DNA of 64,000 nt from an uncultured Gemmatimonadales bacterium (GCA_963729985.1 CAVSPJ010000001.1:896156-960155); one strand, 5' to 3'; shown: positions 326 through 44,140, numbered from the stretch's first letter. The notes: generated by a model from the letters alone, not told the origin. A program made the numbers and translations.

Positions 326-1042
326 TCACTCCGATCGTGGGTGGGAAGTCTTTGTCCGACCCACCACCAGCACCGCGAACGCGATCGTCATTCCCGCGAA
401 CACGAACCACTGGATGGCGTAGTTCAGGTGCGGTCCGTCGTCCGGCTGGGGTGGGACAAGCCTTCGAGGCGAGGCGGGCAGCGAGGAGTCCGGTGTCTGG
501 CGCACGACGATCGGCGCCAGCGGGTAGGGCAGCCGCTTTCGCAGCGCCGCCAGATCGAGCCGCGCCCAGGTGGTCTGGCCGGCATGAACGACCGCTTGGC
601 CGCCGCCGCTGCCGATGGGGGTGGCCAATCCTCTCACCCGGACCACCCCGCGCTCCACCAGTGAGTCGGTACGGACCCTCACCGCGTCGGGGGCCGGCAC
701 GAATCCCCGCAGCACCAGCAGGGCCGTGTCACTCGTCGCCCGCCGGAGCGGGGTCACCAGCTGCACGCCGGGCGCGCCCTCGAGAGACCGGCCGCGCAAT
801 ACGATCTCGTGTTCGTAATCGTAGACCCCGACAGCCTCCACCCACCGACCGCTCGGGTCGTCCGCCGTGCCGTTCCCGCGTGCCCCTAATTGGAGCAGCG
901 GCTTCGCGCGCGCCGCAAGCGCCGCCTGATTCGCGGCGCGGCGCTCCGAGCGCCGCGTCAGCTGCCAGACACCGAGCCTGACGAAGAGCGCCGCGATGAG
1001 CAGGAGCCCGAGGATGGCGATCCGGCGAGTCGTGGGGGACAT
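326..1042 (-). CDS. SURF1 family cytochrome oxidase assembly protein
   Basis: 238-aa ORF. N-terminal TM helix followed by GVWQLTRR; C-terminal HLNYAIQWFVFAG plus a second TM helix. Confidence 0.8.
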   Translation of the reverse strand: MSPTTRRIAILGLLLIAALFVRLGVWQLTRRSERRAANQAALAARAKPLLQLGARGNGTADDPSGRWVEAVGVYDYEHEIVLRGRSLEGAPGVQLVTPLRRATSDTALLVLRGFVPAPDAVRVRTDSLVERGVVRVRGLATPIGSGGGQAVVHAGQTTWARLDLAALRKRLPYPLAPIVVRQTPDSSLPASPRRLVPPQPDDGPHLNYAIQWFVFAGMTIAFAVLVVGRTKTSHPRSE

Positions 1043-1217: not shown

Positions 1218-1823
1218 ATGAGCATCGAGTGGCGCGGCATCACGGCCGCGATCGCCCTCCTCCTGATCGGTTCGGGCGGCGCCCTGGGGCAGGAGGCGCC
1301 CCGGGGGCTCTCGCTGGTTCGAGAGGGCGATCGCGCCGGCCTCTGGGGTGGGTTCTCGCTCGGCGCCGGCGGAGAGGCGTTCGACCTCCGCGACGGCGCC
1401 GGGTATACCGAGGAGCTTTACCGCCCCACCGTGTCTTTTCGCCTCGGGGGTACCGTAAACCAGAATCTCCGGCTCGGCGGTGAGGTGCTGGCGTGGATCA
1501 ACGAGCGGGACCGGAGTGTCGAATCACTCACCAGCCTGCTCTTCGTAGGCCAGTTGTATCCCCTGGCGACCTCGGGCGTTTATTTGAAGGGGGGCGTCGG
1601 TCTGGGCCGGAACGCGGTGGACTTCGACGGCGGCGGTGGAGTGGGTGACACCGGCTTCGCCGGACTGGTCGGAGCCGGATGGGAGCTCCGCGTGGGCCGC
1701 CGCTGGTATCTCAATCCTTCGGTCGATGTCGTTGGCCATAGCTACACCGGCGGCGGCAACGAGCGATATCGCGAGCGATTGGTCAATTTCGGGTTCGGCG
1801 TGGTTTTCCAGAGCGGACGTTGA
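1218..1823 (+). CDS. small outer-membrane beta-barrel protein, function unknown
   Basis: 201-aa ORF with a signal peptide (AIALLLIGSGGALG/QE). Gly/aromatic-rich alternating strands, C-terminal NFGFGVVFQSGR. First gene of the co-directional block. Confidence 0.5.
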   Translation: MSIEWRGITAAIALLLIGSGGALGQEAPRGLSLVREGDRAGLWGGFSLGAGGEAFDLRDGAGYTEELYRPTVSFRLGGTVNQNLRLGGEVLAWINERDRSVESLTSLLFVGQLYPLATSGVYLKGGVGLGRNAVDFDGGGGVGDTGFAGLVGAGWELRVGRRWYLNPSVDVVGHSYTGGGNERYRERLVNFGFGVVFQSGR

Positions 1824-1864
1824 AGCGATCCGCCGAAGGCCGGCCGAGCCGGTGGGTGGTACCG

Positions 1865-2590
1865 ATGACGAAGATACATCGTACATTCGTGCGCTCTTTC
1901 CCCGCGGTGGCCCTGAGCCTGGTCCTGGGGTGCGGCGGCGATCTCCTGCTTCCGACCTCGTCGGGGCAGGGAGTCGATCTCGCTATCCTCGGTGGAAACG
2001 GCCAGACCGGAACCGTGGGTCAGGAGCTCCCCGAACCGCTTGTGGTCGGCGTCGAGTCGGCTGCGGGTCCGATCGCAGGTCATCGGGTCGCGTTCGTCGT
2101 GGCCGGCGACCCGGCTGCGGGACGGCTCGACCCCGATACCGCGGTCACCGGCCCGGACGGCCGCGCGGTCGCACGCTGGGTGCTGGGCTCGACGCCGGGT
2201 CCGCACGAGGTGGTAGCGCAGCTGGTCGTCAGCGAGCCGGCGCCGCCTCCGACGGCGGTGTTCGAGGCCTCCGCGCTGGCGGGCGAGCCGGACACCGTTC
2301 GGGCCGTGAGCCCGGTCAGTCAGCCGGGAAGGCTCGGGCGGCCGGCGACCGAGGATCCGACCGTTCTGGTTGTGGACCGATTCGGAAATCCGGTCGGCGG
2401 CGTGCCGGTGGAGTGGACCGTGACCGCCGGCAGAGGCGAGGTCAGCAGCTCCCAGTCGGCCACCGGAGCGGATGGCAAGGCGGCGGTGACCTGGACTCTG
2501 GGCCTGAGCGTCGGAGTGCAAAAATTGACGGCTCGAGTCGACGGGGCGCACGGCTCGCCAGTGACCTTCACGGCCACGGTGCTGTTCTGA
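1865..2590 (+). CDS. Ig-fold (Big_1-like) repeat lipoprotein, paralog 1
   Basis: ORF 1820..2590; likely ATG at 1865 (MTKIHRTF). Lipobox LVLGC followed by GGD. Two repeats with the D.FGNPVGGVPVEWTV..G.G...TGADGKAAVTWTLG pattern. Confidence 0.7.
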   Translation: MTKIHRTFVRSFPAVALSLVLGCGGDLLLPTSSGQGVDLAILGGNGQTGTVGQELPEPLVVGVESAAGPIAGHRVAFVVAGDPAAGRLDPDTAVTGPDGRAVARWVLGSTPGPHEVVAQLVVSEPAPPPTAVFEASALAGEPDTVRAVSPVSQPGRLGRPATEDPTVLVVDRFGNPVGGVPVEWTVTAGRGEVSSSQSATGADGKAAVTWTLGLSVGVQKLTARVDGAHGSPVTFTATVLF

Positions 2591-2757
2591 GTGCGGGTGC
2601 GTCGTAACGTCTCCGCAACAGGTGCCCGAATCGGGTGAGGAAGTCCTAGTCCCGCAATACATTAAGCCCGAGGGCCGGACTCGCCTTTCGGCATGCATCA
2701 TGCTTTCTTCCGCCCCAGCCCGGGCGCTCCGGGCAGCCCCTCGAATCCAGAGCGGAC

Positions 2758-5700
2758 GTGATTAAGACACCCCAGAGCCTAGCCTTTTCGATCGGAATCC
2801 TGCTCACCACACTCGTTGCCGGGTGTGGAGGCGACGTCGTTCTTCCCAACGAAGGCGAGGCCGCGAGTCTCGAAATTCTCAACGGCGATGACCAGTTTGG
2901 ACAGGTCGGCGCCGCGTTACCCGACCAAGTCGTGGTCCGGGTGACGGACACCCGGGCCCGTCCGGTGGTCAATCAGGACGTGGCGTTCTCTATCGGGAGC
3001 GGCGGCGGGTCGGTGGCCCCGGCTACCGTGAAGACCGATGCCGTCGGCCACGCCGCCGCCGACTGGACCCTCGGTCCGAACGCGGGGAGCCAGTTGCTGC
3101 GGGTGCAGACCGCCCGGGGCGGGTCCGGCACGCTGGAAGTGACCTTCCGTGCGACCGCGGTCGCGGGGACCGGGAGCATTCTCGTCGGCGTCCGCGGAGA
3201 CGATCAGACCGGGCCGGTCAACTCCGCGCTGGCCGACTCGTTGGTCGTGAAGGCCACCGACGCGCTGGGCAACCCGGTGGCCAACGTCGAAGTCTCGTGG
3301 ACCGTTTCGGGCGGTGGCTCCATCCAGCCTCTAACCGTGCTGACCGATGCCGGCGGGCTCGCGGCCGCGGAGCGGGTGCTCGGTGCCACGGCCGGCGCCC
3401 AAAGCGCGCGGGCCACGGTGGAGGGGTTCACCGGTTCTCCGGTCGTCTTCAGCCACACGGCGGTCCCCGCGAATCCCACCGACCTGGTGCTGGTGTCCGG
3501 CAGCGGCCAGGTCGCTCCCGGCGGGTTCGAGGTGGCGGAGGATCTCGTGGTCCGCCTGCAGGACGACAATGGGAACGGCATCGGCGGTCGGCCGATCACC
3601 TGGGTAGTGCCCGCAGGCGCGGGTTCGGTCACCCCGGTAAACACCACGACCAATGCGAATGGATTGGCGACCACCCGGTGGACCCTGCCGACGCTGGTGG
3701 GGAACTACACCGTGAGCGCGGTCTTTTCCGGCTTGCCTCCGGTGCCCTTCACCGCGACGGCGACCGCCGACGTGCCGACCACGATCGAGGAGGCGGGTGG
3801 CAACAACCAGAGCGCGCCGGTGGGGACCTCGCTGCCGAACCCGCTGGTCGTCAAGGTCACCGACGCCACCGGCAATCCGGTGACGGGGGTCTCGGTGAAC
3901 TGGACCGCGGAGGGTGGTGGCTCGGTGTCCGCGGCGACGTCGGGGACGAACGCGTCCGGCCTGGCGCAGATCACCAGAACCGTCGGAGCTACCCCGGGCC
4001 AGTACACCACGAGGGCCGAGGTAGGGGGCCTGAGTGGATCGCCGGTCACCTTCGCCTCCACGGCAACCGTCGGGCCCCCGGCCCGCCTCGCGATCACGAC
4101 CGCGCCGGGTAGCCCCACGGTCAGCGGGGACGCGCTCTCCCCGGCCCCCGTGATTCAGGTGCAGGACCTCCAGGGCAACGCCGTCGGCAGCCCACTTGGC
4201 AGCGGCATCACGGTGACGGTCGCGATCAGCTCGGGGCAGGTCGGAGCGAGCCTGATCAATACGGAGCGCAACACCAACGGGAGTGGCCGGGCGACGTTCA
4301 GCAACCTCCGGATCAGCGGGCCGCCGGACGACGATTACGTGCTGACCTTTACCGCGACGGCCGCCAGCGGGCCGCTCGTTCCCGTGAGCTCCGGGCCACT
4401 TGTCGTCACCGCGGGCGCCGCCAACCGGCTGGTGATCATTCAGCAGCCTTCGGCGACTGCCCAAAGCGGCGTGGCCTTCGCTCAGCAGCCCAGCGTACAG
4501 GTTCAGGACGCGAGCGGAAACCCCATCGCGGGCAACGTCACCATCACCGCGCAGGTAGGCCAGGGTTCCGGCACGGTATCGGGCACGACCACTGCCAGCA
4601 CCGGCGGCTCGGCCACGGCGAGCTTCAGCGGGCTCGGGATCAGCGGCCCGGTAGGCACCAAGACGATCATCTTCACGTCCGGAGCGTTGGCGCCGGGCGA
4701 GTCCAATTCGATCACCCTGTCGGCGGGGCCGCCCGCATCCATCGCGATCCAGGCGGGAAACGATCAATCTGCCGGCGTCAACCAGGCGGTCTCGACCGCC
4801 CCCGCGGCGATCGTGCGTGATGCGAGCAACAACCCGGTGGCGAATGTGGACGTGAATTTCCAGGTAACCGGAGGCGGCGGAACGGTAACGCCGGGCACGG
4901 TGGCCACGGGAAGCAACGGCATCGCGACCGTCACCAGCTGGACCCTGGGACCCTCGGCCGGGCCCAATACGATGACCGCCACGGCCACGGGGCTCAATAC
5001 GGTCACGTTCACCGCGACCGGCACCACGACCGCCACCAGCACCAGCCTCTCCGCCGACCCCGGCACTTCGGTCGCGGGCGAGCCGGTGACGTTCACCGCC
5101 ACGGTCACGGGCGGCGGGGGCACGCCCGCGGGACTGGTCAGCTTCCGCGACGACGGGGCCGAGATCGGCCAGGGGACGCTGGACGGCGGCGGAGTCGCGA
5201 CGTTCCAGACGTCCAGTCTTGCCGCCGGCACCCACCCGATCACGGCGGAATACCTGGGGAACGGACCCTTCGCCGCCAGCACCTCTAACACGGTGAACTA
5301 CAGCGTGTCGGCGAGCAACGTGGCGCCGAGCGCCCAGGCAGACACGTTCAACGTCAACGAGGATGCTACCCTGACCGTCGCCGCCAACGGCGTGCTCGGC
5401 AACGACGACGACGACGACGGTGACCCGCTCACCGCTCAGCTCGTGACGGGTCCTACCCACGAACAGAGCTTTACGCTCAACTCGAACGGATCCTTCAGCT
5501 ACACGCCCGAGAGCAACTTCAACGGCGGCGACTCGTTCACCTATCGAGCGAACGACGGCCAGGCCAATTCCAACAACGCGATCGTCACCCTCACGGTGAT
5601 CGCGGTGAATGACAGCCCCACCTTCACCATAGACGGGGACGTCTCGACTTCGTCGCTGACCAGCTCGACGATGGGAGAATCGCACGCGGGCTGGGCCAGT

Positions 5701-5946
5701 GGAATCAGTCCCGGTCCCTCGGATGAGATCACCCAGGACGTTACCTTCGAAATTTCCACCGATGCCGATGATGCCTTCGATACGCCCCCCCAGATCACGC
5801 CTCTCCAGACCGACTCCGTCAGAAACCTCACCTACCAACCGAGCCAGCGCTCCGACACCTTGGTCGTGAACGCGACGATCACCGCCACCGACAGCGGCGG
5901 AGCCGTCAGCCCCGGGCAGGACTTCACCATCACGATCAACCCCTGA
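2758..5946 (+). CDS. large Ig-fold repeat lipoprotein, paralog 2 (Big_1-like repeats, Big_3-like Ig domain, cadherin-like/VCBS-type module)
   Basis: 1062-aa ORF with GTG start and lipobox LVAGC-GGD. About 7 repeats of D..GNPV...V.W.V..GGG...T...G.A...W.LG. Also carries GTHPITAEYLGNGPFAAS and NEDATLTVAANGVLGNDDDDDGDPLTAQLV...FSYTP...FTYRANDG...VNDSP. Confidence 0.75.
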   Translation: MIKTPQSLAFSIGILLTTLVAGCGGDVVLPNEGEAASLEILNGDDQFGQVGAALPDQVVVRVTDTRARPVVNQDVAFSIGSGGGSVAPATVKTDAVGHAAADWTLGPNAGSQLLRVQTARGGSGTLEVTFRATAVAGTGSILVGVRGDDQTGPVNSALADSLVVKATDALGNPVANVEVSWTVSGGGSIQPLTVLTDAGGLAAAERVLGATAGAQSARATVEGFTGSPVVFSHTAVPANPTDLVLVSGSGQVAPGGFEVAEDLVVRLQDDNGNGIGGRPITWVVPAGAGSVTPVNTTTNANGLATTRWTLPTLVGNYTVSAVFSGLPPVPFTATATADVPTTIEEAGGNNQSAPVGTSLPNPLVVKVTDATGNPVTGVSVNWTAEGGGSVSAATSGTNASGLAQITRTVGATPGQYTTRAEVGGLSGSPVTFASTATVGPPARLAITTAPGSPTVSGDALSPAPVIQVQDLQGNAVGSPLGSGITVTVAISSGQVGASLINTERNTNGSGRATFSNLRISGPPDDDYVLTFTATAASGPLVPVSSGPLVVTAGAANRLVIIQQPSATAQSGVAFAQQPSVQVQDASGNPIAGNVTITAQVGQGSGTVSGTTTASTGGSATASFSGLGISGPVGTKTIIFTSGALAPGESNSITLSAGPPASIAIQAGNDQSAGVNQAVSTAPAAIVRDASNNPVANVDVNFQVTGGGGTVTPGTVATGSNGIATVTSWTLGPSAGPNTMTATATGLNTVTFTATGTTTATSTSLSADPGTSVAGEPVTFTATVTGGGGTPAGLVSFRDDGAEIGQGTLDGGGVATFQTSSLAAGTHPITAEYLGNGPFAASTSNTVNYSVSASNVAPSAQADTFNVNEDATLTVAANGVLGNDDDDDGDPLTAQLVTGPTHEQSFTLNSNGSFSYTPESNFNGGDSFTYRANDGQANSNNAIVTLTVIAVNDSPTFTIDGDVSTSSLTSSTMGESHAGWASGISPGPSDEITQDVTFEISTDADDAFDTPPQITPLQTDSVRNLTYQPSQRSDTLVVNATITATDSGGAVSPGQDFTITINP
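5404..5418 (+). repeat. (GAC)5 trinucleotide run encoding DDDDD inside paralog 2
   Basis: gacgacgacgacgac read directly; it lies in the putative Ca-binding acidic loop of the cadherin-like module. Confidence 0.9.
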
Positions 5947-6025
5947 TCCTTCCGCAACTCCTGTCATAGCAGTTACTTGGCCGGACGTGTGACCCAAGTC
6001 CTAGTCCGGCGCGGGTAACGGCGCT

Positions 6026-8227
6026 ATGCTCTGCCCGATGCGTCATCTTCGACTTCTCGCGATCGGTCTCGCTTCTACCGTGGTCGCCTCCTGCGGAGGC
6101 GACGACCTCGTGCTTCCCAGCGAAGGCCAGCCGGCGGTGATCACCATCATTCAGGGGAAAGGCCAGACCGGCCGGGTGGGCGAAACGCTCGCCGAGCCGC
6201 TCGTGGTCGAGGTGATCGACGGTGCCGACCGACCGGTGGCGGCCGCGACCGTCGTGGTCGAGATCTCCGGCGCGGTGTCGGAGCCCGACACCCTCTCGAC
6301 CGATGCCAAAGGGCGGGCCGAAGCCCGGATCACACTGGGATCACAGGTGGGCGAGCTCGCCGGCGCGGTGCGCGTGATCGCACCGGAGAGCCCGGTGGCG
6401 GTCGAGGCGAGCTTCAACATGGTGGCCGTGGCCGCTTCCGCCAACGGGCTCGCCGGCGTGTCGGGCGACGGGCAGAGCGGCGTCGCCGGAACCGAGCTCG
6501 CCGAGCCACTCGTGGTGGAGGTGACCGACGCGTTCGGCAATCCGATCGAGGGCGTCACCATCACCTGGGCCCCGGACGCCGGGAGCGTCAGCGAGAGCTC
6601 CACCGTCACCGACGGCTCCGGTAGAACCTCGGTCGCCCGAACCCTCGGGCCCGCCGCCGGATCGCAGACTACGCTCGCGAGCTCCGAAGGTCTCGCCGGC
6701 TCTCCGGTGACCTTCACCCATACCGTTACAGCCGGCAGTGCATCGGGTGTCCTCGTCGCAGCGGGAAACAACCAGACGGCCGCGCCCGGGGCCACCCTCC
6801 CCGAGGACCTGGTGGTGCAGGTGGTGGATGCAGACGGCAATCCGGTGGTGGCCGCCGCGGTCACCTGGGTGGTGACGGCGGGCGGGGGCACGCTCTCGCC
6901 GGCGACCGGAGCGACGGACGCGAACGGCCGCGCCGCTACCCGGTGGACGCTTGGCGCGTCGGCCGGGGCCAATACCGCCCAGGCGATCGTCTCCGGCGTC
7001 GGGGAGGCGGCGTTCAACGCAACTGCCGCCGCGGGTACCGCCAGCCAGATCCGAGTGGTTTCGGGTGACGGTCAGACCGCCCAGGCCGGAGCCCGGCTCC
7101 CCGCCGCGCTGGTAGTCCAGGTGCTCGACGGCGCCGGGAACCCGGTGAACGGGGCGGTGGTGAGTTGGGCCGTCGAATCGGGAGGTGGGGCGCTCTCCCC
7201 GGCTTCCGGCCCGGCCGGCGCGGACGGCCAGGCTTCGACTTCCTGGACGCTGGGCCCGGGGACCGGGACCCAGCGGGTGCGAGCATCCACACCTGGCGCG
7301 GGCTCCGTTCGATTCGAGGCGACCTCCACGGCGGGTGCGCCCTCGGCGCTGGGGCTCACAACCCAGCCATCCGGCAAGGCACAGCTTGGCCTGCCGTTCG
7401 GTCGGCAGCCGGTGATCCAGGTGCGCGACGCCTCGGGGAATCCGGTCCAGACGGCGGGCGTGATAGTCACCGCGGCCATCGCCAGCGGGGCCGGACAGCT
7501 CATAGGCACCGCGACCAGGACGACGGGGTCGAACGGGCGGGCGTCCTTCACGAATCTCGGTATTCAGGGTGCCGTCGGGCGCCACTCGCTGATCTTCGCG
7601 GCGAGCGGATTCACCTCCGTGACGTCCTCGAGCATCGACATCGACCCGGTCGAGACCACCACTCGTATCACATCGGACGCCCCCGATCCGTCGGCCCCGG
7701 GTCAGGGCGTGGCGGTGGTCTTCGAAGTCACCTCGCCCGGCGGGGCTCCGTCGGGCACGGTGGACGTCACGGCCTCAGGCGGGCCGGAGACCTGCAGCGC
7801 CTCGGCGGCGGCCGGGCAGTGCACCATCGTGCTAAATGGGGCGGGGTCGCGCACCCTCACCGCCCGCTTTCAGGGGGGAGTGCTGTTCAAGGCGAGCTCG
7901 GGTTCGACCTCGCACAACGTCGTCGTCCCGAACACTCCGCCGACCGCGGTCGACGATGGCTACTCCGCGACCGCCGGCGTGACCTTGTCCGTCTCCCAAG
8001 CCGACGGGGTGCTGGCCAACGACTCCGACCCAGACGATCCGATGACCGCCCAACTGCTCACCTCCCCGAGCCACGGCTCCGTCACCCTGAATTCCGACGG
8101 CTCGTTCGACTACACGTCCACTCCCACGTACTTCGGACAGGACACGTTCACCTACCAGGTGAACGCCGGGGGCGCAACGGCGTCGGCCACGGTCAGAGTC
8201 ACCGTCAACCTTCCTCCAGGTCCCTGA
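6026..8227 (+). CDS. Ig-fold repeat lipoprotein, paralog 3 (Big_1-like repeats plus cadherin-like/VCBS-type C-terminal module)
   Basis: 733-aa ORF (alternative ATG at 6038), lipobox VVASC-GGDD, repeated D.FGNPI/V motifs. C-terminal TAVDDGYSATAGVTLSVSQADGVLANDSDPDDPMTAQLL...FDYTS...FTYQVN. Confidence 0.75.
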   Translation: MLCPMRHLRLLAIGLASTVVASCGGDDLVLPSEGQPAVITIIQGKGQTGRVGETLAEPLVVEVIDGADRPVAAATVVVEISGAVSEPDTLSTDAKGRAEARITLGSQVGELAGAVRVIAPESPVAVEASFNMVAVAASANGLAGVSGDGQSGVAGTELAEPLVVEVTDAFGNPIEGVTITWAPDAGSVSESSTVTDGSGRTSVARTLGPAAGSQTTLASSEGLAGSPVTFTHTVTAGSASGVLVAAGNNQTAAPGATLPEDLVVQVVDADGNPVVAAAVTWVVTAGGGTLSPATGATDANGRAATRWTLGASAGANTAQAIVSGVGEAAFNATAAAGTASQIRVVSGDGQTAQAGARLPAALVVQVLDGAGNPVNGAVVSWAVESGGGALSPASGPAGADGQASTSWTLGPGTGTQRVRASTPGAGSVRFEATSTAGAPSALGLTTQPSGKAQLGLPFGRQPVIQVRDASGNPVQTAGVIVTAAIASGAGQLIGTATRTTGSNGRASFTNLGIQGAVGRHSLIFAASGFTSVTSSSIDIDPVETTTRITSDAPDPSAPGQGVAVVFEVTSPGGAPSGTVDVTASGGPETCSASAAAGQCTIVLNGAGSRTLTARFQGGVLFKASSGSTSHNVVVPNTPPTAVDDGYSATAGVTLSVSQADGVLANDSDPDDPMTAQLLTSPSHGSVTLNSDGSFDYTSTPTYFGQDTFTYQVNAGGATASATVRVTVNLPPGP

Positions 8228-8381
8228 CCCCACCTACCGCAACCGCATGTGGTGAAAAATCTTGCACTCCTCGGGCCGGAGCGGGTTTGTGTGATCCAGG
8301 ACCCTATCGTCCGGGTTCCCGGCGTGCTAAGGTAGACCTCCCGAAATCATCGTCGACCCCCCCTCTCCAACGGGGTGCAAT

Positions 8382-9725
8382 TTGCGCTACTTCCGTGCGC
8401 TGGCCGCGTTGTTGTCCCTGGTCTCCGGCGTCGCCTGCGGCGGAGGCGACCTGGTGCTACCCGAGGACCAGGTGCCGGTGGAAATCACGGTCGTCGAGGG
8501 CAATGGTCAGATCGGCGCGGTCGGGGCCGAGTTGACCGAGCCGCTCCAGGTACAGGTGTTGGACGTCCAGGGACGCGGGGTGCCGGGAGTGCGAGTCGCC
8601 TTCAAGCTCGGTGCACGGGCAAACGGGGGCGACATGAGCCCGGATACCGCGCTCACCAACGCCGACGGGCTCGCCTCCTCACGCTGGGTGCTGGGGGGTG
8701 CGCCAGGCCGGCAGGAGGTGCAGGCACAGATCGTCGGGGCGAGCGTGGCCGTCACGTTCGTGGCCGAAGCCGAGCAGACTTCCGGGCTCCGACTCGAGCT
8801 CTCCAGCGGGGATGAGCAGGAGGGTGAGACCGGTGCCGAGCTCGCCGAGCCCCTGATCGTCCGGTTGGTGGACGAGGGTGGTGAGGGGGTTCCGGACCAG
8901 GCGGTAGCCTGGGTCGTCGCAATCGGTGAGGGTACGGCGGCGCCGCAATCGACCGGCACCGATGCCGACGGTTTCGCCAGCACTACCTGGACCCTCGGCC
9001 CGAAGGCCGGTCTCAACACCTTGAACGCTGTAGTATCCGGCGTCGGTGTTGTAAGCTTCACGGCAACCGGCGTGGCCCAAGGCGGCGGCGGGCCAAGCCC
9101 GGAACGCTCTAGCGTCACTGCGTCACCATCCGACATCGTCGTGGGCGCCGGCGTCTCCACCATCACGGTGAAGGTGCGCGACGGGTCGGGTGCCGCGGTC
9201 TCAGGCGCCACCGTCACGCTGACGGCCACGGGTGGCGGCAACATCCTGACCCAGCCGCAGGCCCGCACCGGCGCTGACGGCGTGGCCACCGGAACGCTGC
9301 AGTCGGCGATACCGGGTACCAAAGTCGTGTCGGCCGTGGTGAACGGATCCATCGCGATTACGGAGACGGCAGCCGTCACGGTGACCGCCCTGCCCCAGGC
9401 CAATGGCCTCCGGTTCCGGGTGCAACCGTCCGACACGGAGAAGGACGAGGCGATTTCGCCGGTGGTCGAGGTCGCCGTCGTGGACCAGCAGGGGGAGGTA
9501 GTGCCGGTGTCGGGCGTCGAGATCGCGATCGAGCTGATTCGGAAAGACGGCCACGACTCCCGCGACCTCGAAGGCGACCTCACGCAGGACACGGAGGACG
9601 GCGTCGCGGTGTTTCCCGACCTGGTGGTGGACCGCGAGGACAAGGACTATCGGCTCCGCGCCTCGGCGCCCGCCAGGCCGGAGTTGGGAACGGTCGAAAG
9701 CGAACCCTTCGACATCGAGGATTGA
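8382..9725 (+). CDS. Ig-fold repeat lipoprotein, paralog 4 (includes an invasin-type Big_1 domain)
   Basis: 447-aa ORF with TTG start and lipobox SGVAC-GGGD. SSVTASPSDIVVGAGVSTITVKVRDGSGAAVSGATVTLTATGGG...TGADGVATGTLQS is classic Big_1. Confidence 0.7.
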   Translation: MRYFRALAALLSLVSGVACGGGDLVLPEDQVPVEITVVEGNGQIGAVGAELTEPLQVQVLDVQGRGVPGVRVAFKLGARANGGDMSPDTALTNADGLASSRWVLGGAPGRQEVQAQIVGASVAVTFVAEAEQTSGLRLELSSGDEQEGETGAELAEPLIVRLVDEGGEGVPDQAVAWVVAIGEGTAAPQSTGTDADGFASTTWTLGPKAGLNTLNAVVSGVGVVSFTATGVAQGGGGPSPERSSVTASPSDIVVGAGVSTITVKVRDGSGAAVSGATVTLTATGGGNILTQPQARTGADGVATGTLQSAIPGTKVVSAVVNGSIAITETAAVTVTALPQANGLRFRVQPSDTEKDEAISPVVEVAVVDQQGEVVPVSGVEIAIELIRKDGHDSRDLEGDLTQDTEDGVAVFPDLVVDREDKDYRLRASAPARPELGTVESEPFDIED

Positions 9726-11644
9726 TGGCGCGTCGCTCAGCCCTTCGGCTCGCGCTCACGCTGGCCCTGGCACCGGCCTGCGGCGGCGACAATCTCACGC
9801 TGCCCGACGAGGGCGAGCCGGCGGTCATCGAGATCGCCCGAGGCGACCGCCAAAACGGGACGGTGGGTGAGGCGCTGGGGGACTCGCTGGTGGTCCAGGT
9901 GAGTGATCGCTTTGACACCCCGGTCGGCGGGGTGACGGTGATCTGGTCGGCCGAGCGGGGTGGGAGCGTGGATCCGCATGCGAGCGTCACCGCGGCCGAC
10001 GGCCGGGCCGGGACCCGGCGCGTACTCGGCCCCCAGCCCGACACCTACCTCACCGTCGCGACGGTCGACGGTCTCTCCGAGCCGGCGACCTTTACGAGCA
10101 CCGCGCTCACGGCGAAGCTGGTCTTCACGTCCGAGCTGCCCGCCATCGCGGTTTCCGGAGTTCCCCTCTCCCCGCAACCGACGCTACGACTGCAGGACGC
10201 CGACGGCAGCCCGATCGCGCGGGAAGGGGTCATCGTGACGGTGCAGATCGCCTCGGGCGGCGGGTCTCTGGTGGGGGCAACCACGGCGACCAGCGACGCC
10301 GAGGGCCTGGTGGCGTTCGATGGTCTGGCCATCAGTGGGTCGCCGGGCACCCGCAGGCTCATCTTCGCGGCCGATGCCTTCGCGCCGGCGACTACACCAC
10401 CGATCGCGCTGGGCGTCGGCGCGCCCGCGTCGATCGAGCTCGCGGCCGGCGACGATCAGAGCGCCACTGTGGGCGAAGCGGTTTCCATCGATCCTTCCGT
10501 CCTCGTTCGAGACGCGGACGGAAACCCGCTGGGCGGCATCCCGGTGACGTTCACGGTGACGAGCGGCGCCGGCACCGTCTCGGACAACACGCCCATTACC
10601 GGTGCCGACGGGGTCGCCGCGGTGGGCGAGTGGAAGCTGGGGGGCACCGCCGGGGAGAATACCCTCTCCGCGGCCGTGGCGGGGCAGGCCCTGAGTGGCA
10701 GTCCGGTGGTCTTTTCCGCCACTGGGGTCCCGGACGACGCGAGCGCCGGGCAAAGCACCGTCACCGCCGTACCGGCGACGATCAACGCCTCCAGCGGCTC
10801 GAGCTTCTCGACCATCACGGTCACGGTGCGCGACCGGTATGACAACCCGTTGGCGGGAGTGGCGGTGACGCTGGCGGTCACGGGCTCCGGCTCCGGAAAC
10901 ACCCTGGTCCAGCCGGCCGGCCCCACCGGCCCCGACGGAGTGGCCACCGGCAAATTCAGCTCGTCCGCGGTGGGGAGCCGCACGATCACCGCCACCGCCG
11001 ACGGCGTCGCCATCGAACAGACCGCCACGGTAGCGGTCGGCGCCGGCGGGCCCTCCGCCTCCACCAGCTCGGCCACGGTACCGAGCGGCCGGGCCGGCCA
11101 GCCTACTACGATCGAAGTTCTGCTGAAGGACGCGCTGGGCAACCCGGTGAGCGGCGCGGCCGACGCGATCGTGTTGACCATTGCGGGGGCCAACAATGTC
11201 GGCAGTTTGCCCGCGGGCGACCAGGGCGGCGGTCGATACACGGTGAGGTACACGCCGCAGGTTGCCGGCACGGACCAGGTGACGATCCGGGTCGCGGGAG
11301 TGGCGTTGGCCGGCTCGCCGTTTTCCAGTCAGATCGGGTCCGGTCCGACGGTAGCGTCGCAGAGCACCGCCACCGTACCGGCTCGAGTCTCCGTCTTCAC
11401 GCCGTTTACCATCACGATCACGGCCCGGGACCAATTCGGGAACCAGGCCACGCAGGGCGGAGATCCCTTCGAGCTGAGGATCGATGACGGCGCACCGCGG
11501 ACCTTGACCGATAACGGGAACGGTACCTACCAGGTGACGATTGCGAGCTTTTCGCTGTCGGTGGGGTCGCACCAGGTGTTCGTCACGCTGGGGGGCGCGG
11601 ACATCAAGGGGAGCCCGTATCAGCTCGTAATCTCGTTCCCCTAG
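9725..11644 (+). CDS. Ig-fold repeat lipoprotein, paralog 5 (Big_1 repeats plus two filamin-like repeats)
   Basis: ORF 9722..11644. ATG 9725 overlaps the stop of paralog 4 (TGATG). Lipobox LAPAC-GGD. C-terminal DQGGGRYTVRYTPQVAGTDQVTIRVAGVALAGSPF and DNGNGTYQVTI...HQVFVTLGGADIKGSPY resemble filamin/ABP280 repeats. Confidence 0.75.
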   Translation: MARRSALRLALTLALAPACGGDNLTLPDEGEPAVIEIARGDRQNGTVGEALGDSLVVQVSDRFDTPVGGVTVIWSAERGGSVDPHASVTAADGRAGTRRVLGPQPDTYLTVATVDGLSEPATFTSTALTAKLVFTSELPAIAVSGVPLSPQPTLRLQDADGSPIAREGVIVTVQIASGGGSLVGATTATSDAEGLVAFDGLAISGSPGTRRLIFAADAFAPATTPPIALGVGAPASIELAAGDDQSATVGEAVSIDPSVLVRDADGNPLGGIPVTFTVTSGAGTVSDNTPITGADGVAAVGEWKLGGTAGENTLSAAVAGQALSGSPVVFSATGVPDDASAGQSTVTAVPATINASSGSSFSTITVTVRDRYDNPLAGVAVTLAVTGSGSGNTLVQPAGPTGPDGVATGKFSSSAVGSRTITATADGVAIEQTATVAVGAGGPSASTSSATVPSGRAGQPTTIEVLLKDALGNPVSGAADAIVLTIAGANNVGSLPAGDQGGGRYTVRYTPQVAGTDQVTIRVAGVALAGSPFSSQIGSGPTVASQSTATVPARVSVFTPFTITITARDQFGNQATQGGDPFELRIDDGAPRTLTDNGNGTYQVTIASFSLSVGSHQVFVTLGGADIKGSPYQLVISFP

Positions 11645-12467: not shown

Positions 12468-13532
12468 CTAGCTACGCGCGCCGGTGGTGAGCATCCGGCG
12501 CAGCGGGTGGCGGGCGTAAATCGGTTGGAGGGCGAGGTAGCGAGTCATGACCGCGGTGCCCGGCACCAGCAGCTCATAGTGCTCGAGAAGCTCGGACGCC
12601 TGGAGATCGGCCGGGTCGGTGTCCGTGGTGGTGGCCTGGAGGAAATGGACCGCGAAGGCGATCGCCTCCGCCTGATGCTCGGACGCGCTCTGGTGGCCGT
12701 ACCGGTGGCTGTCGGGGATGGGCGCGATTCCCCGCCACAGGATGTTCAGCTGTCCCGAAGCGCGTGCCTGCCACCGATGGGCCAGCTCGTGAGCCAGCGC
12801 ATGCCGGAGCTGCTCCTGGCTGCTCATCCGCGCCGGGTCGAGCGCCAGCGAGTCGCGCGAGGCGATGTACTCTCCCAGCCGACCCGCCCGGCGCCCGCGA
12901 TCGCCTACCAGCCCGGCGGGGCGCGCCGGCCGGCCGAACAGCGCATACAGGGTGTCGGCGTACACACTGCGCTCGATCGAGCGGGTGACCAGCCAGATCG
13001 CGGCTGGGTCCCGGGGATTGACCAGCGGGTGGTCGGGCCGCCGCTCGCGCGAGGCGACGCTATCGAGCCACCGTGGCCGCTCGGCCATATCCAGCAGGGT
13101 TCCCGGCGCCTCGGTTCCGAAGACGCCGCCATCCACCCGGAAGACGTACACCGGCCTGCCCCGGGCCGAATCGGCGTAGGCCAGTGATACCATCGGCGCC
13201 CGCCACGCGCGGCCCTCGCGCAGCCGGACCGGCCCGATCAACGGGTAGGTCTGAGCCAGGCGGCCGTCCATCGACAGGAAGACCAGGCCCGTGTCGGTGA
13301 CGATGAACCGGCCCGGCCGCGGAGGCAGCCCGCGAGGAGACAGGAAGCCGCCGATCTCCGCCCCGACCGGGAGCGCGCCCGACCTCGCGCGGCCGGGCCG
13401 GTCCATCGGCACCGGGGCCGGGCGCGCGGTATCGCCGGCGGTCCCGAACACGTAGCCCATCGCGCCGCCGGACGCGCGCTCACCCGCGGCGGAGGCCGCG
13501 AGCGCCACGAGCAAGAGGAGAGGGGCGCGCAC
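12468..13532 (-). CDS. secreted hypothetical protein with an HExxH motif (putative zinc metallopeptidase)
   Basis: 354-aa ORF with a signal peptide (LLLLVALAASAAG). Single HELAH motif (ALAHELAHRWQ). No family recognised. Confidence 0.45.
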   Translation of the reverse strand: MRAPLLLLVALAASAAGERASGGAMGYVFGTAGDTARPAPVPMDRPGRARSGALPVGAEIGGFLSPRGLPPRPGRFIVTDTGLVFLSMDGRLAQTYPLIGPVRLREGRAWRAPMVSLAYADSARGRPVYVFRVDGGVFGTEAPGTLLDMAERPRWLDSVASRERRPDHPLVNPRDPAAIWLVTRSIERSVYADTLYALFGRPARPAGLVGDRGRRAGRLGEYIASRDSLALDPARMSSQEQLRHALAHELAHRWQARASGQLNILWRGIAPIPDSHRYGHQSASEHQAEAIAFAVHFLQATTTDTDPADLQASELLEHYELLVPGTAVMTRYLALQPIYARHPLRRMLTTGARS

Positions 13533-17549: not shown

Positions 17550-20120
17550 ATGCCGAGTTTCCGCGGTCGCCGCGCGAGCCGCTCCATGCGGCTCACTCTG
17601 GTGCTGATTGGAGTCCCGCTCCCAGCCGTCACGGCGCAATCCAACGCCGACACGGCGGCGCCGCAGAAGACCACGAGCATCGCCGCCGGCCCGCAATACG
17701 ACACCGGGTGGCTCCACCGGCTCTTCTTCGGCAGTCTTTACCGGGATCTCTGGCGCACGCCGATCGAAGCGCCGATCCTCGATCTGGACCACTTCGCCGG
17801 CGGCCTCGAGGCCACCAAGCGGGGTGGCGGCCAGCAGACCAAGTCACTTCGCCTCAAGGGGGCCGACGGGAGGGAGTACCAGTTCCGTTCGATCGACAAG
17901 GATCCGGTGTCTACCCTCCCGCCGGCCCTGCGCTCGACCGCGGCGGCGGACGTCGTCCGCGACCAGACCAGCGCGGGACATCCGGTCGGCGCGGTGCTGG
18001 CCCCGCCGATCCTCGAGGCCGCGGGCGTTCTTCACGCCGCTCCGCGGGTGGTCATTCTTCCGAAGGACGAGCCTCGGCTCGGCGAGTTCGCCGGAGAATT
18101 CGGCGGGATGCTCGGTACCATCGAGGAGCGCCCCGAGGACGACGAGGGTGCCTCCTTCGCCGGAGCCAGCCAGGTGATCGGCACCGCCAAACTGCTGAAG
18201 GAGGTGGAGGACAGTCCCAACGACCGGGTCGAGGCACGGGCCTTCCTGACCGCACGGCTGGTGGACATCCTGATCGGCGACTGGGACCGCCACGTCGATC
18301 AATGGCGCTGGGCTCGGTTCGGCGACAGCACGCCCCGCCTGTGGTTTCCGATACCGCGCGACCGCGATCAGGCGTTCGTGCGCTACGACGGACTCCTGCT
18401 GACGGTCGCGCGGGCCAGCACGCCGCAGCTGGTGAACTTCGGGCCCAAGTTCGCCGGCATGCTGGGCCAGACCTGGAACGGGCGCGATCTCGACCGGTGG
18501 CTCCTCGTGCCCCTGGAGGTGCCGGTCTGGGATTCCGTTGCGGCGGCGCTCCAGTCGCGCCTGACCGACGAAGTGATCGAGTCGGCCGCGGCGCAATTGC
18601 CGCCGAGTTACATCCCCCTGGATTCCGCACGGCTGGCCGACGCCTTGAAGCACCGACGCGACGACCTGCCCGAGGTGGCGCGGCGGTACTACCGGCATTT
18701 GGTGGGCGAGGTGGAGGTGCACGCGACCGACCGGAACGATATCGCCGAGGTCCAGCGGGTGGACGGGAGGTTCACGGAGGTGTCGTTGGCGGTGATGGGC
18801 GAGAACGGTGAGGCCGATGAGCCGTACTTTCGCCGCCGGTTCGACCGGAAGGAGACCAAAGAGGTTCGGCTGATGCTGCACGGTGGCGCGGACCGGGTCC
18901 GGGTGTGGGGAGAGGGTGGTGGGGGTGTCCGGATCCGGGTACTGCCGGGGAAAGGCGACGACGTGGTCGTGGACTCCTCTCACGGTGGTAAAGTCACGCT
19001 GTACACCGAGGAGGCCGCCGATTCGGTGCTCCCCGGCCGGGACGTGGCCGTGAATCGAAAGCGCTACGCTCCGCCCGACACCGCCGTCCGCGACTGGGGC
19101 GATCGCTGGCTATCGGTCGTATGGCTCGCCGCGGGGCCGGACATCGGCATCTTCGGCGGGACCGGCATCTCGCTGACCCGGTTCGGCTTCCGCCACGATC
19201 CCTACGCGGCACGGTACCGCCTGCGCGCCGGCTGGTCTACCGGGGCCTCCACCGGCCGGGCCGACTTCAACGCGACCTGGATTCCGGAAAATTCGCGGCT
19301 TCGGGCGAACCTGCTCGCCCGGGCCTCGGGAATCGACGTGCTCCGGTTTCACGGGTTCGGGAACCAAGTGAGCGCGGGCGGGCCCGAGGAGTTCTACCGG
19401 GTGGACCAGGTGGACCTCACGCTGGGTCCGTCCCTCGCCTTTCCCGTGGGGAAGGTTGCCCAGCTCAGCTTCGGTCCGCGGCTCCGCTACTCGTCCACCG
19501 ACTTCGACCAAAACCGCTTCCTCACTCCGCTCACCTACGGCGCGGGCAATTTCGGCATGCTGGGAGCTAGCGGCCGGTTCCAGCTGGAGACCCGAAACAA
19601 GTCGCTGGGGGCGACTCGCGGGCTGACTCTGGAGGTGGGCGGCGGCTATTTCCCCTCGATACTGGATGTGGAGGATCCCTTCGGGGAGGTCCATGCCGAG
19701 GCGTCCACCTTCGTCACCTCGCCGAGCCTGCCGCTCCAGCCCACGCTGGCCCTGCGAGCAGGCGGCAAACGTGTGTGGGGCCGGTTTCCGTTCCAGGAGG
19801 CGGCGTATATCGGCGACGCCGGCACCGTGCGACTGGGCCGGCAGAATCGGTATGCTGGCGACGCCTCGGTCTACGCGGGGAGCGAGCTCCGGCTGTTCCT
19901 GACCCGGTTCTACTTTCTGGCACCGGCTGATTTCGGGGTGCTCGGTCTGGCCGATGTAGGGCGGGTCTATCTCGACGGAGAGGAGTCGGACCGATGGCAT
20001 GCCGCGGGCGGCGGCGGCATCTGGGCATCGTTCCTCGACCGCTCCTACATGGTCAGCCTGTCCCTCGCGAAGAGCGCCGAACGGACCGCGCTGTACTTCA
20101 GGATCGGGTCGGGTTTCTGA
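17550..20120 (+). CDS. large outer-membrane protein with an Omp85/BamA-like C-terminal beta-barrel
   Basis: 856-aa ORF with a signal peptide. The C-terminal 350 aa are Gly/aromatic beta-strand-rich and end ALYFRIGSGF (terminal Phe). Confidence 0.55.
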   Translation: MPSFRGRRASRSMRLTLVLIGVPLPAVTAQSNADTAAPQKTTSIAAGPQYDTGWLHRLFFGSLYRDLWRTPIEAPILDLDHFAGGLEATKRGGGQQTKSLRLKGADGREYQFRSIDKDPVSTLPPALRSTAAADVVRDQTSAGHPVGAVLAPPILEAAGVLHAAPRVVILPKDEPRLGEFAGEFGGMLGTIEERPEDDEGASFAGASQVIGTAKLLKEVEDSPNDRVEARAFLTARLVDILIGDWDRHVDQWRWARFGDSTPRLWFPIPRDRDQAFVRYDGLLLTVARASTPQLVNFGPKFAGMLGQTWNGRDLDRWLLVPLEVPVWDSVAAALQSRLTDEVIESAAAQLPPSYIPLDSARLADALKHRRDDLPEVARRYYRHLVGEVEVHATDRNDIAEVQRVDGRFTEVSLAVMGENGEADEPYFRRRFDRKETKEVRLMLHGGADRVRVWGEGGGGVRIRVLPGKGDDVVVDSSHGGKVTLYTEEAADSVLPGRDVAVNRKRYAPPDTAVRDWGDRWLSVVWLAAGPDIGIFGGTGISLTRFGFRHDPYAARYRLRAGWSTGASTGRADFNATWIPENSRLRANLLARASGIDVLRFHGFGNQVSAGGPEEFYRVDQVDLTLGPSLAFPVGKVAQLSFGPRLRYSSTDFDQNRFLTPLTYGAGNFGMLGASGRFQLETRNKSLGATRGLTLEVGGGYFPSILDVEDPFGEVHAEASTFVTSPSLPLQPTLALRAGGKRVWGRFPFQEAAYIGDAGTVRLGRQNRYAGDASVYAGSELRLFLTRFYFLAPADFGVLGLADVGRVYLDGEESDRWHAAGGGGIWASFLDRSYMVSLSLAKSAERTALYFRIGSGF

Positions 20121-34030: not shown

Positions 34031-34034
34031 TCAT

Positions 34035-35384
34035 ATGCCGACCATGCGACGGTGGCACCCGCTGCTCCTGCTCGGCACGATCGCCGTGGGAGCCTGCAGC
34101 TTCGACTTGAGCACCAACCCCAACAGCCCCGATCCGATCGGGGCCAACCCCTCGCGCGTGCAGGTCGGCGTGGCCGCGAACGGCATGCTGATCGCCTTTC
34201 GCACCGACTTCGCCGACTTCGCGCTGGACCTAGGGGTGATCGGGCGTGAAGTGATGCGATTCGACGGCTCGGATCCGCGCTTCACCACCGAGCTGTTACA
34301 CGGGCCGCTCGACCCCGGAGGCGACGCCTTCGGCGGCGACCATTGGGGCGACCAGTACGCGGCGATCCGCGGCGGCAACCTCATCCTGGCCGTGCTGCCG
34401 ACGGCGGCCGAGCTCACCGCAGCGGAGCAGAGCGCCACCTCGGGCTACGTGAAGACGATCGAGGCGCTCAACTACCTGATGGTCCTGAACTCGCACACGC
34501 AGGACTCGATCCCGATCGTGACCGACACCTCCGTGGTCGCGGAGCCGGCCCCGTTCCAAACCAACGCCGCAGCCTTCCAGCACGTCGTCACCCGATTGCA
34601 GGAGGCGCGGGCGGAGCTGGACGCCGGCGGAGCGGCCTTCCCCTTCGGCCTGCCGTCGGGTTTCGACGGATTCAACACGCCGGCGACGTTCGTGGCGTTC
34701 AACCGGGCGCTGCTGGCCCGGGTCGAGGTCTATCGGGGCAACTTCACCGAGGCCCTCGCCGCGCTGGGCGAGTCGTTCATCGATCCGGCTGCGCCGCTCG
34801 ACCGCGGGGTCTATATGAGCTATGGGACGGGCCCGGGCGACTTCGCCAATCCGCTTTCCATCGACCCGCAGCAGGGAGAAAACTTCGCCCATCCATCGCT
34901 CAGGAGCGGGGTCCAGTTCCAGGCGGACGGGACCACGCCCGACCAGCGGTTCCTCGACAAGATCGTCCCTCGTCCGCCGGGCAGCGCCGACGATCTCACC
35001 TCGGATCTCGGGTGGATACGGTATCCGACGCCCACCACACCGATCCCGATGATCAAGAACGAGGAGCTGCTCCTGCTCAGGGCGGAGGCGAGCATCGGAA
35101 ACTCGGACTTCGTCACCGCGCTGGTCGACATCAACACAGTGCGGACGCGCTCGGGGGCTCTGGAGCCGCTCGGCTCGCTCGGCACGCCGGGGCAGGCGCT
35201 GGACGAGTTGCTGTACAACAAATTGTACTCACTCATGTTCGAGGGGGCTCACCGGTGGATCGACGCCCGTCACTACGGACGGCTCGGCACGCTGCCGATC
35301 GACCGGGGTCCGAGGGCGAACAAGCCTCCAGATCAGGTGTTCTCGACGCTTCCGATTCCGTCGGACGAAACGAACGCGCGGTAG
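34035..35384 (+). CDS. SusD/RagB family nutrient-binding lipoprotein
   Basis: 449-aa ORF starting 4 nt after the SusC stop. Lipobox AVGAC. TPR-like helical content. C-terminal ELLLLRAEA...ERTRSG...ELLYNKLYSLMFEGAHRWIDARHYG is typical of the SusD_RagB C-terminal region. Confidence 0.8.
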   Translation: MPTMRRWHPLLLLGTIAVGACSFDLSTNPNSPDPIGANPSRVQVGVAANGMLIAFRTDFADFALDLGVIGREVMRFDGSDPRFTTELLHGPLDPGGDAFGGDHWGDQYAAIRGGNLILAVLPTAAELTAAEQSATSGYVKTIEALNYLMVLNSHTQDSIPIVTDTSVVAEPAPFQTNAAAFQHVVTRLQEARAELDAGGAAFPFGLPSGFDGFNTPATFVAFNRALLARVEVYRGNFTEALAALGESFIDPAAPLDRGVYMSYGTGPGDFANPLSIDPQQGENFAHPSLRSGVQFQADGTTPDQRFLDKIVPRPPGSADDLTSDLGWIRYPTPTTPIPMIKNEELLLLRAEASIGNSDFVTALVDINTVRTRSGALEPLGSLGTPGQALDELLYNKLYSLMFEGAHRWIDARHYGRLGTLPIDRGPRANKPPDQVFSTLPIPSDETNAR

Positions 35385-42433: not shown

Positions 42434-42435
42434 CG

Positions 42436-44129: not shown

Positions 44130-44140
44130 CACTGCATAAC

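Follow-up and report, generated by a model that had tools for sequence, protein, structure and literature searches.

A small outer-membrane barrel gene and five putative Ig-repeat lipoproteins with a conserved post-cysteine tether at a fixed chromosomal site of Gemmatimonadales

In the intimin/invasin family (intimin, invasin, InvD, InvE and FdeC; type Ve), tandem rods of immunoglobulin-like (Ig) domains of the Big_1/Invasin_D3 type end in a distinct tip, the Big_1 passengers serve adhesion, and the inverse autotransporter barrel (Pfam IAT_beta), which is 12-stranded and N-terminal, is fused to its passenger. LigA and LigB of Leptospira are surface adhesins in which a lipobox Cys is followed by a long bacterial Ig-like array, made of Big_2 (PF02368) repeats, and Slam-dependent surface lipoproteins are encoded beside a Slam translocon gene and end in an 8-stranded barrel domain. 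In Bacteroidota the lipoprotein export signal (LES) reads K-(D/E)2 or Q-A-(D/E)2 directly after the +1 Cys (PMC5080379). Here we analyse a stretch of 64,000 nucleotides from an uncultured soil bacterium of the order Gemmatimonadales (GCA_963729985.1, CAVSPJ010000001.1:896156-960155; hereafter the window), in which positions 1218 to 11644 hold the gene of a small outer-membrane barrel protein followed by the genes of five putative Ig-repeat lipoproteins, P1 to P5. On balance, and with modest confidence, we take this block for a stable envelope operon of the core chromosome whose lipid-anchored Big_1 rods act as adhesive or cohesive fibrils of the outer membrane.

According to our analysis the block comprises six co-directional genes of the plus strand, with high third-position GC in the open reading frames (ORFs). 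Each of the five lipoproteins carries, from its lipobox Cys onward, a short conserved stretch, which we call the tether, and then a series of Ig repeats. The proteins were analysed with Pfam, with a hidden Markov model (HMM) built from one internal repeat (the repeat HMM, significance at i-Evalue <= 1e-9) and, where indicated, with AlphaFold2 (AF2) models graded by the predicted local distance difference test (pLDDT) and compared by Foldseek. The genes and their parts are as follows.

1218-1823, plus strand: small outer-membrane barrel gene, 201 amino acids; signal peptide (residues 1-24), conserved N-terminal extension (25-41, APRGLSLVREGDRAG), predicted 8-stranded beta-barrel
1865-2590, plus strand: gene of putative lipoprotein P1, 241 amino acids; Cys23, tether CGGDLLLPTSSGQGVDL (1931-1981, plus strand; AF2 pLDDT <50 up to residue 29), two Big_1-like Ig domains (44-121 and 151-238), no tip module (Pfam Big_1, repeat HMM, AF2, Foldseek, alignment of 59 orthologs)
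2758-5946, plus strand: gene of putative lipoprotein P2, 1062 amino acids, the exact protein being present in the public collection; Cys23, tether CGGDVVLPNEGEAASLE (2824-2874, plus strand), seven Big_1-like repeats (42-754), Big_3_5 (764-850), Big_9/cadherin-like (854-947), C-terminal region of about 110 residues (Pfam, repeat HMM)
6026-8227, plus strand: gene of putative lipoprotein P3, 733 amino acids from ATG 6026; Cys23 (numbered from 6026), tether CGGDDLVLPSEGQPAVI (6092-6142, plus strand; found also by the DNA-pattern scan), five Big_1-like repeats (43-533), Big_3_5 (551-632), Big_9/cadherin-like (636-726) (Pfam, repeat HMM)
8382-9725, plus strand: gene of putative lipoprotein P4, 447 amino acids; Cys19, tether CGGGDLVLPEDQVPVEI (8436-8486, plus strand), four Ig repeats, the third of Invasin_D3 type (240-336), acidic C-terminus (Pfam, repeat HMM)
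9725-11644, plus strand: gene of putative lipoprotein P5, 639 amino acids; Cys20 (numbered from TTG 9722), tether CGGDNLTLPDEGEPAVI (9779-9829, plus strand; found also by the DNA-pattern scan), four Big_1/Invasin_D3 repeats, two Filamin-type repeats (449-534 and 554-628) (Pfam, repeat HMM)

By its sequence pattern each of P1 to P5 starts with positive charge, continues with a hydrophobic stretch and then has a lipobox Cys, which is the sole Cys of mature P1, P2, P4 and P5 and is invariant (100%) in 84 orthologous N-termini; all five fit the signal peptidase II pattern and are called putative lipoproteins here. Every one of them exceeds the Pfam gathering cut-off for Big_1 (PF02369; 34.9 bits), with 56 bits for P1, 135.3 for P2, 99.1 for P3, 81.4 for P4 and 120.4 for P5, and further Pfam matches fall on Invasin_D3, Big_3_5, Big_9/Cadherin_4/5 and Filamin. 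Significant repeats number 2, 7, 5, 4 and 6 in P1 to P5, with two marginal fragments added in P2; a scan of NCBIfam returned merely sub-threshold tandem-95 repeat and rSAM-lipoprotein matches. The AF2 model of P1 has a mean pLDDT of 88.9, with both Ig domains above 90 and residues 1-29 below 50, and its best matches among solved folds are intimin D0-D1 and D00-D0, InvE, FdeC, invasin and InvD. These results bear out an earlier reading made from the sequence alone (the original prediction), which had seen five Ig-fold proteins of 241 to 1062 residues, each with a signal peptide and a lipobox Cys, that differ in repeat number and in distal modules; by Pfam these modules are Big_3_5 with Big_9, Invasin_D3 or Filamin, depending on the protein. 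Its gene geometry also stands: the barrel gene ends 41 nucleotides before P1, and the P4 stop and P5 start share one nucleotide (TGATG). We measure the distances P1-P2, P2-P3, P3-P4 and P4-P5 as 167, 79, 154 and -1 nucleotides. P3 probably starts at ATG 6038, giving 729 residues, since the 733-residue form is not on record and orthologs begin with MR(N/Y/H). At the C-terminus of P1 (2570-2590) all 59 aligned orthologs read ...TATVLF, with the final Leu-Phe invariant; such a C-terminal Phe resembles an outer-membrane barrel assembly signal, odd for a lipoprotein, and may be no more than the final Ig-domain strand.

The original prediction had described one conserved N-terminal module of about 60 residues shared by all five proteins and had named, as its possible undoing, that this module be just a generic first Big_1 repeat without added conservation. 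We show that the module is a composite of the type II signal peptide with its lipobox Cys, the tether, and the first copy of the array's own Ig repeat. Within the window the shared motif is found in each of the five genes and in no other place, and from 'G-x-G-Q-x-G' onward it recurs in internal repeats and is therefore not specific to the N-terminus. First domains match the repeat HMM end to end (62-93 bits each), and over the Ig columns first domains share 38.8% identity with one another, internal ones 39.2%, and first with internal domains 34.6%. A profile of the five modules found 26,547 matches among 1.84 billion representative proteins, most of them giant proteins with many repeats and the best with up to 35; the matches usually begin at profile position 10-17, and the tether is present in just 2 of the top 150. 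Judged from these comparisons, the module is mostly a generic first repeat, an outcome that the original prediction had itself listed as refuting it; conservation beyond that of the repeat is limited to the ~17 residues next to the Cys, and only the tether is specific.

The tether follows the consensus C-G-G-(x)-D-L-x-L-P-x-(E/D)-G-x-P over about 10-17 residues. In 84 unique N-termini from related loci its positions are kept at 100% (C), 93% (G), 80% (G), 80% (D), 82% (L), 99% (L) and 100% (P), which equals the best-conserved positions of the Ig domain, and in the AF2 model of P1 it is not packed on the first Ig domain. A DNA pattern for CGGDxLxLP has two matches in the window where chance would give 0.01, the post-Cys sequences of five other putative lipoproteins of the window are unrelated to it, and across about 0.6 Mb of related loci the tether is confined to array genes. 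In three independent assemblies the P1 ortholog (L009, 10572-11075; L010, 2865-3377; L025, 9959-10948) has cleanly lost its first Ig domain and kept the lipobox and the tether CGGDLSLPSSPGE, which is continued there directly by the second domain. Of 114 giant Ig-repeat proteins related to P0204, 14 likewise have the tether at their head. A scan of metagenomes with the tether DNA pattern is a weak measure of specificity, since it is overrun by out-of-frame matches that arise by chance; it showed by eye a genuine lipoprotein-leader context in 7 of the 120 stretches listed, and in 6 of these 7 the repeat follows 21-22 residues further on. One further array member with a tether (CGGDSLTIPS), a protein of 699 residues in locus L024 (11623-13719, plus strand), has Big_1 and Big_3_5 only at its C-terminus; over its first ~480 residues neither the repeat HMM nor any Pfam family gives a match.

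Set beside the described systems, P1 to P5 share with the intimin/invasin family the Ig type and the tandem rods with distinct tips and differ from it in that each has its own signal peptide and lipobox Cys; membership among inverse autotransporters was rejected, as P1-P5 give no IAT barrel or LysM match and the separate barrel is modelled with 8 strands. With the Lig proteins they have in common the lipobox Cys followed by a long Ig array. Leptospira belongs to a different phylum, no Big_2 match was found in P1-P5, for which a Lig-type assignment was rejected, and to our knowledge neither a conserved D-L-x-L-P tether nor a linked small barrel accompanies Lig proteins. A short conserved post-Cys sequence and possibly an analogous sorting role recall the LES lipoproteins of the same superphylum; this membership, too, was rejected, the post-Cys residues of P1-P5 being G-G-(x)-D-L-x-L-P, and, unlike the LES, the tether is hydrophobic, contains proline and is specific to its family, with no counterpart in the window's other putative lipoproteins. 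Slam-dependent export was rejected as well, since the neighbourhood within the window holds no Slam gene and the C-termini are Ig, cadherin-like or filamin modules, and so was type IX secretion, given that P1-P5 have no Por_Secre_tail match in Pfam and their C-termini differ from one another.

The barrel protein is modelled by AF2 with eight strands and a mean pLDDT of 75, its N-terminal extension being of low confidence, and its best Foldseek matches in the PDB are Ail, OprG, NspA, the OmpA transmembrane domain, OmpW and OmpX, at a sequence identity of just 10-18%. Our own Pfam hmmscan gave no family at E<=0.01; precomputed tables list PF13505 (OMP_b-brl) for most relatives of the barrel and call it 'weak' for the window's own copy, so that the assignment rests on a borderline PF13505 score and on the predicted fold. 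More than 120 clusters of relatives were found, at 73-100% identity, and the public collection holds a protein identical to that of the window (P0001); the window's own copies of the proteins carry no product name there. A predicted 8-stranded barrel with short loops is common to this protein and to OmpX/Ail/NspA, OmpA-TM and OmpW/OprG, from which it is set apart by a conserved N-terminal extension with a G-L-x-x-V motif, by its unusual conservation and by its linkage to an Ig-lipoprotein array. The extension (1290-1340, residues 25-41), compared in the window, L013, L018, L020, L024, L026, L149 and L151, is a short motif before the first strand that is conserved even in distant paralogs: it reads 'APRGLSLV' in the window, 'PPGLVEV' in most relatives and 'LREV' or 'GIRQV' in the tandem paralogs of L149 and L151. 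Its alternating hydrophobic pattern resembles that of the lipoprotein tether (D-L-x-L-P).

To the left, the block is bordered by a conserved gene, which is probably not a functional part of the locus:

326-1042, minus strand: SURF1-family gene (Pfam SURF1, 123.7 bits), transcribed divergently from the block

A scan of GTDB genomes gave 23 barrel loci, 22 of them in metagenome-assembled genomes titled Gemmatimonadales and one in Gemmatimonadota, which together with 4 contigs make 27 barrel-anchored loci (L008 duplicates L001). The order SURF1 (minus strand), barrel, array is kept in 27/27 of these, and wherever the contig is long enough three to six tether-bearing Ig lipoprotein genes follow the barrel on the same strand. 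In L001-L027 and L148-L151 the barrel or array has SURF1 upstream; in distant Gemmatimonadota the same site reads Peptidase_M19, SURF1 (minus strand) and then the locus, which is partitioned very differently there: barrels number 0-2 and tether lipoproteins 2-5, the longest of the latter having 2634 residues. Thus L148 has five array genes and L150 lipoproteins of 2233 and 537 residues, both without a barrel, and in L149 (6329-7724) and L151 (6500-7808) two tandem barrel paralogs (HMM E-values 1e-26 to 1e-34) stand between SURF1 and the tether lipoproteins, of 2623 and 2333 residues in L149 and of 2634 and 534 in L151. The synteny of barrel and array, whose absence in relatives the original prediction had named as refuting it, therefore holds throughout the barrel-anchored loci and breaks down at L148 and L150. 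Where sources give a name to the giant Ig-repeat proteins related to P0204, which are then mostly from Gemmatimonadota, it is 'Ig-like domain repeat protein', 'adhesin/invasin' or similar, and the generic label 'Ig-like domain-containing' is already in use for relatives.

How such a locus might work can be suggested as follows. P1 to P5 would be lipidated and then carried to the outer membrane, from where the rods would project from the cell as fibrils of ~8 to 40 nm and mediate adhesion or cell-cell and matrix cohesion. The rods would bear different tips, namely cadherin-like/Big_9 with Big_3_5 modules in P2 and P3, a filamin-type one in P5, an acidic tail in P4 and none in P1. The tether, probably extended in conformation, would position or sort the rods at the membrane, and the co-transcribed barrel would be an accessory envelope partner and not the translocator, because it cannot be a pore and is absent beside two related arrays. 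We infer the outer-membrane anchoring, the surface exposure, the adhesive or cohesive role and the positioning or sorting by the tether. An extracellular location is favoured by the length of the rods: each Ig domain would add roughly 3.5-4 nm, so that rods of between 10 (P2) and ~26 such domains (in homologs of 2600 residues) would exceed the width of the periplasm. The cadherin-like/Big_9 and filamin-type tips are modules typical of extracellular adhesins.

The original prediction had gone further and proposed an expanding family, an adhesin or S-layer-like repertoire in which a constant anchor is combined with diversifying distal parts. A recently expanding repertoire of this kind would explain the five tandem paralogs with their different distal modules, and in P2 and P5 the distal bins of 100 residues are indeed less conserved (28-50%) than the proximal ones (56-81%); this much of the constant-anchor idea survives. 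The expansion itself does not. Every paralog has a positional ortholog across genomes, the N-terminus of a given gene matching best the gene of the same position in the window (100-160 bits), against 60-80 bits for other paralogs and 40-75 bits for internal repeats. In close relatives the barrel shares 74-82% identity with that of the window, SURF1 59-71% and P1-P5 55-76%, so the lipoproteins evolve like their housekeeping neighbour and their overall divergence equals that of SURF1. Direct repeats in the paralog DNA are just 60-77% identical, apart from one 35-nucleotide pair at 91%, which argues against recent duplication or gene conversion, and within the close clade the architecture of the domains is stable. 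That the N-terminal modules evolve in concert was also considered and rejected: paralogs share ~39% within a genome and orthologs 55-75%, with DNA repeats again at 60-77%. Sequence comparison thus makes the five genes ancient paralogs kept as positional orthologs, old and stable, and a rapidly variable repertoire is very improbable.

The reading that we favour, of lipid-anchored adhesive or cohesive fibrils, has to be weighed against several points. Lipidation, outer-membrane sorting and surface exposure of P1-P5 are all postulated steps; an 8-stranded barrel offers no pore by which a lipoprotein could cross the outer membrane; the tether is unlike either form of the Bacteroidota LES; no ligand can be deduced for any tip module; the adjacent barrel is missing in 2/5 more distant tether-bearing arrays (L148 and L150), so that its partnership with the lipoproteins is not required, at least not in cis; and housekeeping rates and fixed gene order equally fit a structural scaffold of the periplasm or envelope. 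It is, in our judgement, rather unlikely that P1-P5 stay inside the cell, at the inner leaflet of the outer membrane or at the inner membrane, as a periplasmic scaffold, spacer or protective layer, although besides their conservation, gene order and core-chromosome location this would suit the lack of a recognisable surface-export signal or machinery nearby. Weak Pfam matches to MG4, MG2 and CarboxypepD_reg point the same way, with a parallel in bacterial alpha-2-macroglobulin-like lipoproteins (YfhM/ECAM-type), which consist of many beta-sandwich domains of MG/Ig-like kind; the MG matches, however, lie beneath stronger Big_1 matches, and membership in that family was rejected, as neither A2M, thioester or bait-region domains nor a CxEQ motif were found. 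The nearest solved folds of P1 are passengers of extracellular adhesins, homologs of ~26 domains would be several times longer than the periplasm is wide, and the tip modules named above likewise speak for an extracellular location. The tether itself is the main point at issue. We regard as unlikely, and put forward tentatively, that it is a Gemmatimonadota-specific sorting or docking signal that sends the Ig rods to the surface or clamps them to the barrel or barrels; if true, its route would be a form of surface display distinct from the Bacteroidota LES, Slam and inverse autotransport. Still less probable, to our mind, is the related idea that the barrel is a dedicated partner on which the tether docks, or along which it threads, displaying the Ig rods in a split and lipidated analogue of an inverse autotransporter, the tether possibly pairing with the N-terminal 'G-L-x-x-V' strand of the barrel. 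The barrel adjoins the array in all barrel-anchored loci at a gap to P1 of 41 nucleotides in the window, tandem barrels precede the giant tether lipoproteins of L149 and L151, no gene of the block is better conserved than that of the barrel (74-82%), whose N-terminal extension is invariant and unmodelled, and the tether is conserved yet unpacked on the first Ig domain of the P1 model (pLDDT <50); but a barrel of 8 strands lacks an open lumen, all five lipoproteins would have to share a single barrel, and L148 and L150 retain the tether without a neighbouring barrel. Since the extension and the tether are both nearly invariant, covariation between them would carry no signal.

A literature search on Big_1, Ig-like, S-layer, adhesin and surface lipoproteins in Gemmatimonas and Gemmatimonadota found nothing on this locus, and no published work on the Gemmatimonadota cell surface was found. 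As Ig-like lipoproteins P1 to P5 are ordinary in kind, and what has not been described before is the conserved anchor-proximal tether; the distinctive features of the locus are this near-invariant stretch after the lipidated Cys and the fact that the array is often paired with one or two small barrels. Gemmatimonadota abound in soil and are barely cultured. The locus, conserved throughout the order and fixed in its chromosomal site, is with its giant homologs a strong candidate for being the chief proteinaceous surface or adhesion apparatus in these bacteria. The tether and its pairing with the barrel may give a testable handle on the surface placement of lipoproteins outside Proteobacteria and Bacteroidota.

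Besides SURF1 upstream, the genes that flank the block within the window are MgtC (minus strand) and a lipoprotein with an SLT domain (minus strand), both downstream, and an ORF without Pfam matches; no enzyme, ATPase or sorting-tag gene flanks the block, just as the original prediction had it. The repeat HMM and the barrel HMM match no further ORF of the window, and a scan of the block for promoters and terminators gave nothing exceeding the shuffled expectation. In L001 and its duplicate L008 (16486-19788) P4 and P5 are joined in one frame of 1101 residues; a true fusion was rejected, as a complete signal peptide and lipobox lie inside, and a frameshift error of the long-read assembly is the most likely cause. 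Array genes are likewise fragmented in other MFD loci (L004, L019 and L025).

Elsewhere in the window, two ORFs, at 12468-13532 (minus strand, 354 residues) and 17550-20120 (plus strand, 856 residues), have no Pfam match at E<=0.001 and are probably real genes because of their high third-position GC. At 40499-45620 (minus strand) one ORF separates a GH57 alpha-amylase/4-alpha-glucanotransferase gene from a starch/glycogen synthase gene of the same strand; the two are ordinary genes of glycogen metabolism and mark the window as core chromosome. At 31112-35384 (plus strand) a SusC-like TonB-dependent receptor of 972 residues (CarbopepD_reg_2 and Plug) is directly followed by a putative lipoprotein of 449 residues without Pfam match, and the two look like a SusC/SusD-type pair in a Gemmatimonadales genome.

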